DNA of 64,000 nucleotides, taken from positions 121,803 to 185,802 of the forward strand of contig CACDEB010000001.1 in assembly GCA_902551755.1 (NCBI GenBank), read 5' to 3'. The notes under the pieces are model-generated. The model was not told the DNA's origin, searched no databases, and was given only the letters and a program-made list of their open reading frames with translations. Positions within the stretch are counted from its first letter, which is position 1; every line of letters starts with the position of its first letter. Source of the stretch: an uncultured Pelagibacteraceae bacterium (lineage in GTDB: Bacteria; Pseudomonadota; Alphaproteobacteria; Pelagibacterales; Pelagibacteraceae). Below are positions 35,077-38,328 of the stretch, one piece after another. The translations under genes and the position numbers were made by a program.

Positions 35077-35399
35077 CTTACATAGTAAATGACAAATGTA
35101 TTAAATGTAAATTAATGGATTGCGTTGAAGTATGTCCAATTGACTGTTTCTATGAGGGGAAAAATATGCTTGTAATTAAACCGGATGAGTGTATAGATTG
35201 TGGCGTTTGTGAACCTGAGTGTCCGGTTGATGCAATAAAACCTGATACAGAAGAAGGAAGTGAAAAATGGTTAGAATTAAACAAAAAATATTCAGAAATA
35301 TGGCCAAACATTTCAGAAAAAAAAGATCCACCATCAGATAACGAAAAATATAAAAATGAAGAAAATAAATTTGAAAAGTATTTTAAAGAAAACCTTTAA
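35073..35399 (+). CDS. fdxA: 7Fe ferredoxin FdxA
   Basis: [14 protein letters not shown] and [12 protein letters not shown]. Confidence 0.96.
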
Positions 35400-36225
35400 A
35401 AAAAAAAAGAAAGAGTTGCCTAAGAAAAAATCAAAGCCCATAACTAAAAAAACAAGTAAAATAAAAGTTAAGAAAAAGATTGGTAGACCAAAACTAAAAA
35501 CTATAGATAAAAAGTCTTTGAAAGAAAAAGCTAAGGCTAATTTATCTAAGCCAAAAGGTGCTGAAAATTTACGTCTTTCTAAAAACCAAGACCAAAAACC
35601 TGAAATAGTAAAAATTAAAAAACAAGAAACAGAAAAGAAACAATTTAAACCTAAAGATTACGTAGTTTATCCAAAACATGGTGTTGGGCAAATTTTATCA
35701 GTAAGCGCAAAAACAATTGGTGGAATTGATGTGCAGTGTTACGATATAAAATTTGAAAAAGATAAAGCTGTAGGATTGTTGCCAATAAATAAACAATCAC
35801 ACTTAAGACCTTTATCTACAATTAACCAAGTAAATAAATCTATCTCAATTTTAAAAGGTAAACCAAAAATAAAAAGATCAATGTGGAGCAGAAGAGCGCA
35901 AGAATATGAACAAAAAATTACATCCGGAAAAATCTATGAATTAGCAGAGGTTGTCAGAGATCTAAATAAAGGTGACGATATTATGATTGACCAATCTTAC
36001 AGTGAAAGACAGCTATTCGAAAAAGCTTATGAGAGAATATTAACAGAATTCCAAATTATATTAAATCTATCCCTTGAGGATACTCAAAAAAAGTTGGATA
36101 AGGCTTTGAAGAGAAATTTAGAAAAGAATCAGCAAAACCTAGAAAAAAAAGCACCAACTAATCCAAAACCAAGTCAAGATACTGAGGAACCAGAAAATTT
36201 AGAAAACGTTTCAGAAGAGGAGTAA
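35356..36225 (+). CDS. carD: CarD/CdnL family regulator with a Lys-rich N-terminal extension
   Basis: [32 protein letters not shown] and SYSERQLFE. Confidence 0.92.
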
Positions 36226-36227
36226 AA

Positions 36228-36266
36228 AAAAACGCTTCTCACACAAACGTTATGAGAAGCGTTTTT
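36228..36266. terminator. Bidirectional intrinsic terminator
   Basis: AAAAACGCTTCTCA - 11 nt - TGAGAAGCGTTTTT between convergent genes. Confidence 0.85.
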
Positions 36267-36278
36267 AAAAAAGAAAAT

Positions 36279-36350
36279 TTATCTTCTTCTTCTTCTTTTT
36301 TTTGCTTTTTTCTTAGCTTTTTTCTTAGCTTTTTTTCTTCGTTTAGCCAT
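36279..36350 (-). CDS. 23-aa ultra-basic protamine-like peptide MAKRRKKAKKKAKKKAKKRRRRR
   Basis: Below the ORF-track cutoff; GGAG SD upstream, TTGACA promoter upstream, terminator downstream. Confidence 0.8.
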   Translation of the reverse strand: MAKRRKKAKKKAKKKAKKRRRRR

Positions 36351-36397
36351 CTTTAGCTCCCTGTTGTTACGAATCTTTTTGATTCGTTATAAGTTTA

Positions 36398-36426
36398 TTT
36401 TTAAATATTTTCTTTTGTTATGTCAA
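36398..36426 (-). promoter_or_regulatory. Sigma70-like promoter of the basic peptide gene
   Basis: TTGACA - 17 bp - TAAAAA, followed by a 7-bp 5' hairpin at 36369-36387. Confidence 0.6.
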
Positions 36427-36548: not shown

Positions 36549-38237
36549 TTAATAAAGTTTTTCTAAATCTTCTTTATATTTTTCTAAAATTTTTTTTCTT
36601 TTTAATTTTAAAGTTGGTGTTAACATTCCATTTTCAATTGTAAATTCATCTTTAATAAGTTTTATTTTTTTAACTTTTTCTATTGTTTGTAAGTTTTTAT
36701 TTAAATTTTCGATGTATAAATTAATTTCTGATCTATTTTTTTCGTTATCACTTACAATTAATGCAACTAAATAAGTTTTTTTGTCTCCATAAACTAAACT
36801 TTGTTTAATTTTTTCATTTAAACAAAGTAAATTTTCAATTTTAGATGGAGAAATGTTATCACCACCTAAATTTACAATGATTTCTTTTTTTCTATCAGTT
36901 ATTTTCAAATTTCCTTCTTTAGTGAACTCTCCTATATCACCAGTATGCAACCATCCTTCTTTTATAACTTCATTGGTTTCATCTTTTTTATTCCAATATC
37001 CAAGCATAACGTTTTCCCCTTTTACTAATATTTCACCATCGTTTGAAATTTTAACTTCATTGGTTTTAAATGGAGGCCCTACAGTCTCAATTTGAATATT
37101 TCCTGGAACGTTACAGCTAACGACTGGAGAAGCTTCAGTCAATCCATATCCTTGTAATGTTGGTAATCCAATAGAATTAAGAAATTCTCCAATTTTTTGG
37201 TCAAGAGCACCACCACCTGAAACAAAAGCTTGTAATTCTCCACCAAACTGTTTTTTTATCTTTTTTCTAACTAAAATTTCACACAAAAAATTAGATATTT
37301 TTTCTCCAAAATTTAGGTTTTCTTTTTTAAGTTTTTTTGTGCCAAATTTAAGGGTATTCGTTATTAATTTTTTTTTTAACCCCTCCTGTTTAGAAAAATT
37401 TAAAGAAATTTTGTTATATAAATTCTGATAAAATCTTGGAACAGCGGTCATGATGGTTGGTTTCGCCACTGACATGTTAGGAATAAGTTTATCTAAACTT
37501 TCAGCATAATAAACTTTTGCTCCCAGAGAAATTTGAACGAATTGAACAGTATGTTCATACGAATGTGAAAGAGGTAACCATGTCAAAAAAACCGGTTTTT
37601 TCTTTTTGACAATAGAAGCCAATATTTCTAAAGCTCCCTCGCAATTTGAAAGAATTCCACCATGACTTAACATTACTCCTTTTGGTTTACCTGTCGTACC
37701 AGAGGTATAGATTATACAAGCTAAGTCATTTCTTTTTATTTTATCGTTATAACTTTTATTACTAAGATTTGTTTTTTTGAATATTTCTGAAAAGTTTTCA
37801 ATTTCATTTGTTAATTCATCAATAGAAATTATCTTAATCTTGTCATTTAAAAATTTTTCTATTTTTTCATATTGTAATTTATTTGAAACTATACAAACCT
37901 TTGGTGCACAATCATTAATTATATATTCATAGTCTGAGTCTGAGTAAGTGGTAAATAATGGCACTGTTACACCTCCAGAATTCATTATTGCAATATCAGC
38001 AATTAACCATTGTGGTCTATTCTCAGACAATAATACACATCTGTCCCCAGGGGAAATATAGTCTTGTAGAAAAGTTGTTAAGCTTTTAATTTTTAATGTT
38101 ACTTCATTCCAATTTAACGAAGAGTTTTTATCTTTTGAACTTAATCCAAATAAAAAAGGAGGACCTTTTTTGTTTTTAATTTCATCGTATTTTTTGAAAT
38201 AAAGTTCTACTAAACTATTTATGTTTTCTATTTTCAT
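36549..38237 (-). CDS. Long-chain fatty acid--CoA ligase (AMP-dependent synthetase)
   Basis: IIYTSGTTGKPKGV, WLPLSH, QGYGLTE and WLHTGDIG. Confidence 0.95.
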   Translation of the reverse strand: MKIENINSLVELYFKKYDEIKNKKGPPFLFGLSSKDKNSSLNWNEVTLKIKSLTTFLQDYISPGDRCVLLSENRPQWLIADIAIMNSGGVTVPLFTTYSDSDYEYIINDCAPKVCIVSNKLQYEKIEKFLNDKIKIISIDELTNEIENFSEIFKKTNLSNKSYNDKIKRNDLACIIYTSGTTGKPKGVMLSHGGILSNCEGALEILASIVKKKKPVFLTWLPLSHSYEHTVQFVQISLGAKVYYAESLDKLIPNMSVAKPTIMTAVPRFYQNLYNKISLNFSKQEGLKKKLITNTLKFGTKKLKKENLNFGEKISNFLCEILVRKKIKKQFGGELQAFVSGGGALDQKIGEFLNSIGLPTLQGYGLTEASPVVSCNVPGNIQIETVGPPFKTNEVKISNDGEILVKGENVMLGYWNKKDETNEVIKEGWLHTGDIGEFTKEGNLKITDRKKEIIVNLGGDNISPSKIENLLCLNEKIKQSLVYGDKKTYLVALIVSDNEKNRSEINLYIENLNKNLQTIEKVKKIKLIKDEFTIENGMLTPTLKLKRKKILEKYKEDLEKLY

Positions 38238-38241
38238 AAAA

Positions 38242-38328
38242 TGGTGGGCAAAGAGAGAATCGAACTCTCACAGTATTGCTACTATTGGATTTTGAGTCCA
38301 ACGCGTCTACCAGTTCCGCCATTCGCCC
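38242..38328 (-). tRNA. tRNA-Leu(CAA)
   Basis: GGGCGAA/TTTGCCC acceptor stem, TTGGA-CTCAAAA-TCCAA anticodon arm, long variable arm, encoded CCA. Confidence 0.96.

Follow-up and report, generated by a model that had tools for sequence, protein, structure and literature searches.

Among very small basic proteins, the ribosomal bS22/mS38/eL41 and bL37 microproteins are 24-33 aa long, consist of ~60% or more Lys/Arg, have helical propensity and are routinely left unannotated (PMC10618245). Namely, bS22 of Borrelia has 30 aa (61% K/R), differs by one residue across the whole genus and was missing from annotation; only cryo-EM brought it to light, and further cases are anticipated by the authors (PMC10618245). 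In Chlamydia, translation of the small basic DNA condenser HctA (Hc1) has been proposed to be blocked by the sRNA IhtA (PMC4355289, PMC8343073). IhtA is a hairpin RNA encoded in trans, and it pairs with the mRNAs of HctA and DdbA at their start (PMC4355289, PMC3469542, PMC8343073). The rhtB RNA motif (RF01814) was described from ~1250 environmental copies with a conserved loop. No function is known for it, and its authors (Meyer et al. 2009) proposed a cis regulator or a terminator (PMC2704228). Our literature search found no later work on this motif.

SAR11 bacteria (order Pelagibacterales) rank with the most abundant organisms on Earth; their genome of ~1.3 Mb is a textbook case of streamlining. 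The locus considered here was located in a window of 64,000 nucleotides (the whole stretch of DNA that was analysed) from a Pelagibacteraceae genome that had 29.5% GC and was 92% complete. An earlier note had described this place as a complete stand-alone expression unit for a 23-aa protamine-like peptide. We found every element that it listed, with the whole unit on the minus strand (36218..36426), and observed that the unit was conserved in relatives. The elements and their neighbours were the following:

36421..36426, minus strand: -35 hexamer TTGACA; the string TTGACAT was unvarying in all orthologous units
36398..36403, minus strand: -10 hexamer TAAAAA, after a 17-nt spacer and inside a conserved A-rich block
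36369..36387, minus strand: 5'-proximal hairpin ACGAAUC-AAAAA-GAUUCGU, 7 bp, fold z = -4.4
36357..36361, minus strand: Shine-Dalgarno (SD) sequence GGGAG, 6 nt ahead of the ATG at 36348..36350
36344..36361, minus strand: translation-initiation region GGGAGCUAAAGAUGGCUA (SD, spacer, AUG and codon 2)
36279..36350, minus strand: ORF of 23 codons, MAKRRKKAKKKAKKKAKKRRRRR, with stop TAA
36218..36266, minus strand: intrinsic terminator, stem 36228..36266 followed by a T-run; bidirectional, common to the convergent carD
35356..36225, plus strand: CarD-family gene, convergent (Pfam CarD_C 2e-18 and CarD_TRCF_RID), used as synteny anchor
36549..38237, minus strand: acyl-CoA (fatty-acid) ligase gene, upstream neighbour on the same strand as the small ORF

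Thus, the promoter with its 17-nt spacing, the 7-bp hairpin, the clear SD and the 23-aa ORF were all where the earlier note had placed them, and its 14-bp terminator was also recovered, with a different pair count (16 when A-T pairs were counted). The scan for terminators found one where 0.2 were expected from shuffled sequences, and the stem was kept in relatives with compensatory changes. At the site of the promoter, the scan offered TTGACA-18-AAAAAT as an alternative spacing; the consensus of the -10 region, ..AAAAAATAAAAAT.., was kept across the genus. The product had 11 K and 7 R, which made 18 of its 23 residues Lys/Arg, with neither acidic nor hydrophobic residues. The hairpin was located a few nt past the predicted transcript start, and its CGAAUC was unvarying in 52 distinct sequences. 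Subclade IIIa, LD12 and IMCC9063 had an identical 5' arm but a different and longer 3' arm. We ruled out that the palindrome was the operator of a regulon, since it occurred only once in the 1.07-Mb genome and had G-U variants (GAUUUG) that were compatible with the minus strand only, favouring an RNA role. An antisense ORF of 34 aa on the plus strand (36252..36356) was also ruled out: its start was within the terminator and it lacked an SD. Judged from these signals, the unit has its own predicted sigma-70 promoter and intrinsic terminator, together with a strong SD and a putatively stabilising hairpin at the 5' end. The signals were conserved base for base across the family, far beyond chance.

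Two observations concerned the neighbours. The CarD-family protein had 289 aa with a polar/acidic tail and an additional Lys-rich N-terminal part of ~95 aa, its Pfam matches (CarD_TRCF_RID) starting at residue 97. A tRNA gene (Rfam 58.7 bits, 38245..38328, minus strand) was located just upstream of the acyl-CoA ligase gene.

The earlier note had suggested synteny downstream of carD as a check, and there we found a Lys/Arg ORF of 21-30 aa at the same place and in the same orientation in all 18 same-genus genomes that had sequence in this region, a count that, like every conservation count reported here, was inflated by kinship among the sequences. All of these genomes carried TTGACAT, the CGAAUC hairpin, AGGGAGCTAAAG-ATG and the terminator. 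A covariance model of the hairpin, SD and start (R1), whose E-values were rough, had matches in 177 of the 201 Pelagibacteraceae genomes, in 70 of the 74 near-complete ones and in 17 of the 19 genera. The weak matches were inspected by eye, and all of them had a K/R ORF, adding nine further genera with products of 20-58 aa (genus g17 had 31 aa and g20 had 58 aa). We took g17, g15 and g20 to be the Fonsibacter/LD12, HIMB114 and IMCC9063 lineages. Moreover, the gene order fadD -> ORF <- carD <- ferredoxin (fdx) was preserved in six further genera.

Reading the DNA downstream of carD also revealed the gene in the sister family of the order (L021-L030, about 100-400 nt off), where the positional orthologue of 84-89 aa, MEELKVIFAKARKKAKKKAAPKKKRKAAKRKPAKKK...RRKKRR, had the same promoter and CGAAUCA hairpin. 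This orthologue started with a short hydrophobic/acidic head (MEELKVIFAKA), continued with (AAPKKKK)n repeats, and had a terminator separate from that of carD, making two terminators at the locus. A protein-profile search of the sister family gave no match, and the R1 matches found in it were dismissed as noise. The promoter, hairpin, SD, AUG, frame, C-terminal Arg run and terminator kept their positions order-wide. The gene was single-copy, core and syntenic, neither mobile nor patchy.

A look-alike was noticed in one unrelated alphaproteobacterial family when ~400 genomes were scanned. It was a 58-aa ORF, MAKKKKKAAPKKKKK...KKRR, with (KKKKKAAP)n repeats (L182/L200, G441:C1 ~305,039), located in a 1.6-Mb AT-rich genome between ccmA-like and aconitase genes. 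The ORF had an AAGGAG SD, a similar 5' hairpin, AUCACUUAGGUGAU, and a GGAGG/CCUCC helix. The resemblance could be due to homology or to convergence.

The coding potential was examined in 64 distinct coding sequences of 19 lengths, among which AGGGAGCTAAAG-ATG was unvarying. These ORFs contained more than 100 TAA/TAG triplets, and all of them were in frame +2 with none in frame. The T-containing codons (GCT, ACT, CCT) were spaced by multiples of three without exception, although the intervening A-runs would slip easily by 1 nt. Lys was encoded by AAG in 28% of cases, compared to 14.8% genome-wide (486 long ORFs). The longest A-run had a mean of 7.1 nt versus 9.15 +/- 0.17 nt after within-gene shuffling of Lys codons, and 0 of 1000 shuffles were as low, although this was not a clean probability since the sequences were kin. 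The earlier note had regarded frame-breaking indels in close relatives as a sign against the gene. We found such 1-nt changes of A-runs in ~2 of ~100 sequences, and the others stayed in frame over the 19 lengths, although a low-complexity sequence with repeat units of 9-15 nt tends by itself to change length in frame. The two exceptions were a MAG (L035; G049, genus g12) and a complete genome (L234; NZ_CP172844.1, Ca. Pelagibacter bacterium nBUS_28); each of them reflects either a sequencing error in a homopolymer or a rare pseudogene.

The two frameshifted copies would agree with the view that there is no gene at all and that the stretch from the terminator to a promoter-like string is an A-rich spacer of low complexity, open by chance, as would the AT-richness of the genome (29.5% GC) and the presence of purine-rich tracts without stops. 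However, chance openness was scarcely credible given the order-wide positional conservation of the signals, the frame, the C-terminal Arg run and the terminator, the strictly out-of-frame position of the TAA/TAG triplets and the non-random placement of AAG. The small ORF is very probably a real and translated SAR11 gene.

As the earlier note had anticipated, gene callers missed this ORF: an exact look-up of 19 variants (23-89 aa) in ~15 billion predicted proteins found none of them, and the sister-family orthologue of 84-89 aa was likewise absent from that collection. Searches of Pfam and NCBIfam with the peptide, the profile and the long orthologues, and of PDB chains (including ribosome chains) with the single sequence and the profile, gave no match at E <= 10, where the bias filters of HMMER may mask weak matches. 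A search for protein homologues of the 85-aa orthologue returned only fragments. Our literature search found no paper mentioning this small gene. On genomic grounds, it is a core SAR11 gene that annotation has overlooked.

The predicted products of this gene had 20-89 aa, with 58-86% Lys/Arg and mostly Ala, Thr and Pro spacers in the rest. The short forms were of the (KKKA)n type and had no acidic residue and no signal or hydrophobic segment, and the orthologues of 58-89 aa were built from (AAPKKKK)n repeats with the composition of histone H1 tails. Positional orthologues changed four-fold in length through gain and loss of repeats and exchanged K, R, A, T and P freely. Bacterial proteins with Lys/Ala/Pro repeats of similar composition include Hc2, AlgP and the tails of HupB. 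The comparison with protamines and H1-like proteins made in the earlier note was partly borne out. Namely, the repeats and composition of the long orthologues supported it, and Pfam, including the Hc1 and linker-histone families, gave no match with the 23, 58, 85 and 89 aa forms. The likeness to histone H1 tails and protamines lies in a Lys/Ala(/Pro) low-complexity polycation with the same style of repeats, which would be expected to neutralise the charge of nucleic acids. In contrast to them, the SAR11 microprotein was free-standing and monocistronic and had no folded DNA-binding domain, and the analogy was one of composition, without homology.

Alternatively, the peptide would be the alphaproteobacterial counterpart of bS22/mS38/eL41 or bL37, a specific microprotein of the ribosome with its helix in an rRNA pocket. 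The known members are similarly small (24-33 aa), rich in Lys/Arg (~60%) and often unannotated (PMC10618245). The SAR11 gene itself was small, near-universal in the family and provided with a strong promoter and SD. Mitochondria, which are of alphaproteobacterial descent, have mS38. Yet neither Pfam and NCBIfam families nor ribosome chains in the PDB matched even at E = 10, and the orthologues varied strongly in sequence and, through repeat expansion, in length (20-89 aa), unlike the nearly fixed bS22 of Borrelia; a four-fold change in length should not suit a helix that fits a pocket. We considered a ribosomal role rather improbable, since the variation in length and repeats fits a sequence-unspecific polycation better. 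Thus, by analogy with H1 tails and protamines, we leaned on balance towards a sequence-unspecific counter-ion of nucleic acids (nucleoid DNA and/or RNA) as the function of the product. The proposal of the earlier note that the microprotein is highly expressed and condenses the nucleoid is likewise an inference.

The connection of this gene to the rhtB RNA was absent from the earlier note on the unit and came from a genome-wide search with a DNA word, the 18-mer GGGAGCTAAAGATGSCTA, which comprised the SD, spacer, AUG and codon 2. This 18-mer had exactly two copies in all 36 sampled near-complete Pelagibacter genomes as well as in the genome under study, where ~6e-6 chance copies per genome were expected from base composition (29.5% GC), and the reversed 18-mer had none. 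The second copy in the genome under study (C2:289863-289880) was on the opposite strand of an RF01814 hairpin. In other words, the translation-initiation region matched, as its reverse complement, the loop and inner stem of an rhtB element located outside the window (G000:C2:289828-289910), and the 13-nt loop with its inner stem, UAGCCAUCUUUAGCUCCC, was antisense to the ribosome-binding site of the small ORF, with 18 nt of perfect complementarity. When the loop was scanned against 214,116 windows of the same genome, its strongest duplex with anything but itself was the one with this ribosome-binding site (-36.6 kcal/mol versus a background mean of -7.7, sd 3.6). The region in the window itself gave a weak, sub-threshold antisense match to RF01814 (28.6 bits).

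When both loci were compared, complementarity of 13-19 nt was preserved in all 35 genome pairs. The 14-nt core GGGAGCUAAAGAUG (36348..36361) was unvarying in 34 of the pairs, and 13 nt were kept in the remaining one. With GCU as codon 2 the complementarity reached 18-19 nt, and with CCU it was 14 nt followed by a mismatch and a further 5-7 nt; the change from GCU to CCU had no matching change in the rhtB RNA. Relative to separate folding of the two RNAs, cofolding gained -17 to -22 kcal/mol (-22 in the genome under study), versus about -3 to -5 with a shuffled loop. Since the core varied on neither side, there was no compensatory covariation between loop and target. The spacer between SD and AUG offered a comparison: CUAAAG was unvarying in the genera with the rhtB element, whereas in those without it the spacer was free to vary (GGGAGAUAAAG, GGGAGUUAAAG, GGGAGCUGACA, GGGAGAAAACG, GGGAGGAACGGAG, AGGAGACUAAAG).

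A search for the 18-mer in one genome per species (~185,000 species) returned almost only records of Pelagibacter, Pelagibacteraceae and Pelagibacterales. The two exceptions were a chance match within a Sulfurovum gene and a SAR11-like contig of 3 kb binned as Cytophagales. The latter (L251, JAPYTU010000121.1, labelled a Cytophagales MAG) carried a typical SAR11 rhtB element and is probably mis-binned SAR11. In one relative (G160, 1,308,759 bp), the coordinates of the rhtB element agreed with those published by Meyer et al. 2009 for 'Ca. P. ubique' HTCC1062. These results assign the window to the genus Pelagibacter within SAR11.

The element of the genome under study was a bona fide member of RF01814 (72.7 bits versus a cut-off of 55, E = 1.9e-14). 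Matches above the cut-off were present in 39 of the 201 family genomes, all in three genera (Pelagibacter and two neighbouring ones); a weak match in genus g8 proved to be an ordinary terminator and provided no covariation data. The element folded into a bulged hairpin of 10-11 bp and 4 bp with a 13-nt loop, in which the stems had compensatory changes and the loop was unvarying. An extended -10 (TGnTAnnnT) was found 6-8 nt upstream of the hairpin, on the Rfam strand, in all 32 distinct elements, which suggests that a transcript begins with this hairpin. The G-U pair of the inner stem AGCC/GGUU would be A-C on the opposite strand, and one genome had a compensating AGUC/GAUU; the folding energies of the two strands (-18.2 versus -18.1 kcal/mol) favoured neither of them. 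About a third of the elements were followed by a T-run.

The genes next to the element differed between genomes. In HTCC1062-type genomes, the next gene started ~13 nt past the element and belonged to the LysE family, being nearest to RhtB/LeuE. In the genome under study this exporter gene was absent, and a P5C-reductase-like gene (proC) followed the element. The retention of the element where the rhtB gene was lost fits a function in trans. On the other side of the element (G000:C2:288863-290880, L042), we observed a divergent DUF2805 gene and then a glutaredoxin-like ORF. Compared to the rhtB motif as described, the present element shared the bulged hairpin, the conserved loop and the position next to rhtB or proC; the difference was that its loop was antisense to an unannotated gene, at the ribosome-binding site, and the ORF itself was not a member of the motif. 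Based on the conserved complementarity, we consider it fairly likely that the rhtB RNA and the mRNA of the small ORF form an sRNA-mRNA pair.

The nearest functional analogy is chlamydial HctA with its sRNA IhtA. Both cases involve a small, highly basic, Lys/Ala-rich protein and a trans hairpin RNA proposed to pair at the start of its mRNA, without Hfq; a tblastn search of the 92%-complete genome under study did not find Hfq. The differences are that HctA has ~125 aa with a folded part and acts in a developmental cycle, whereas the SAR11 product has 20-89 aa of pure low complexity, and that IhtA makes short loop contacts, whereas 14-19 nt over the SD and AUG are predicted to pair in SAR11.

Pairs of a small ORF and a trans RNA over it are also known among type I toxin-antitoxin systems (tisB/istR-1 and zor/orz). 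A toxin-like pair, in which the polycation would be harmful if overproduced and the rhtB RNA would be its antisense antitoxin, would account for an SD-AUG complementary to 14-19 nt of a trans RNA. However, the peptide was not hydrophobic, the partner genes were hundreds of kb apart rather than adjacent or overlapping, the gene was core and syntenic in a single copy rather than mobile or patchy, and most genera had the ORF without the rhtB RNA. This made a toxin very unlikely. Specifically, the partners were ~250 kb or more apart in complete Pelagibacter genomes and on separate contigs in the genome under study.

The transcript might also matter more than the peptide. The mRNA would then be a dual-function or sensor RNA whose translation through Lys/Arg codons reports the supply of charged tRNA-Lys/Arg, and a free ribosome-binding site would open the hairpin in the rhtB leader and switch on the exporter/proC/liv genes. 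In SAR11 bacteria, transcription factors are scarce and RNA switches numerous (PMC2704228). The ORF consisted almost wholly of Lys/Arg codons, the rhtB hairpin was at the 5' end of an mRNA and ~13 nt ahead of the start codon of a LysE-family exporter, the T-run after about a third of the elements was attenuator-like, and pairing would release the 3' arm of the hairpin according to cofolding. On the other hand, the exporter was nearest to RhtB/LeuE (homoserine, threonine, leucine) and not to LysE/ArgO, which weakened a link to Lys/Arg export. Moreover, the ORF was present in 14 or more genera and the sister family without the rhtB element, no cis-regulated gene followed it since carD was convergent, and the genome under study lacked the exporter gene yet had both partners. 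We therefore gave a sensor RNA little credence, about as little as a ribosomal protein. An attenuator leader peptide was rejected: the next gene was the convergent carD, with which the terminator was shared, and the sister family had two terminators.

Returning to the pairing of a polycation mRNA with the rhtB RNA, the small ORF was found in 17 genera and the rhtB element in three. Because the gene was far wider in distribution than the element, the pairing would be a late add-on and uninformative on the function of the peptide. Some lineages without the element had a predicted cis helix (CUCC...GGAG) over the SD, which suggests that this SD has repeatedly come under some form of control. In the subclade IIIa and IMCC9063-type genera (L147, L149, L150, L158), the 5' UTR contained the sequence ..GCUCCAAAC.. 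at 10-25 nt upstream of the SD, and the two were predicted to form a helix that sequesters the SD in cis.

Taken as a whole, our explanation is that a real and translated polycation gene is paired by an RNA at its ribosome-binding site in Pelagibacter and the two nearest genera; as a conclusion drawn from genome comparison, we hold the arguments for and against it to be about evenly balanced. In the proposed mechanism, the gene product of 20-89 aa would act as a counter-ion for nucleic acids. Once paired with the rhtB hairpin, the mRNA would have its ribosome-binding site covered and its translation into the polycation repressed; the same pairing could also unfold the hairpin of the rhtB/proC leader. 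We infer the direction and sign of this RNA-RNA regulation: it may repress the polycation, open the leader, or do both. That the mRNA of an abundant SAR11 polycation, serving as a nucleic-acid counter-ion genome-wide and conserved throughout the order, and the leader hairpin of an exporter/proline operon regulate each other through a ribosome-binding site is a tentative extension, which we rate as unlikely, though somewhat less so than a sensor RNA.

What is new here is the recognition of the second SD-AUG copy as the antisense of the RF01814 loop, and with it a candidate sRNA-mRNA pair that would work without Hfq, in bacteria for which riboswitches are considered the main means of RNA control. 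RF01814, without a function since 2009, is given a concrete and testable target, and the finding illustrates that a ribosome-binding site searched as a genome-wide DNA word can reveal antisense partners. A free polycationic microprotein could bear on the packing of DNA and RNA in very small cells. If the explanation is true, the synthesis of a polycation, which is a sink of Lys and Arg, would be coupled to amino-acid homeostasis without a transcription factor or Hfq, the orphan rhtB motif would gain a function, and the most abundant marine bacterium would gain a core gene.
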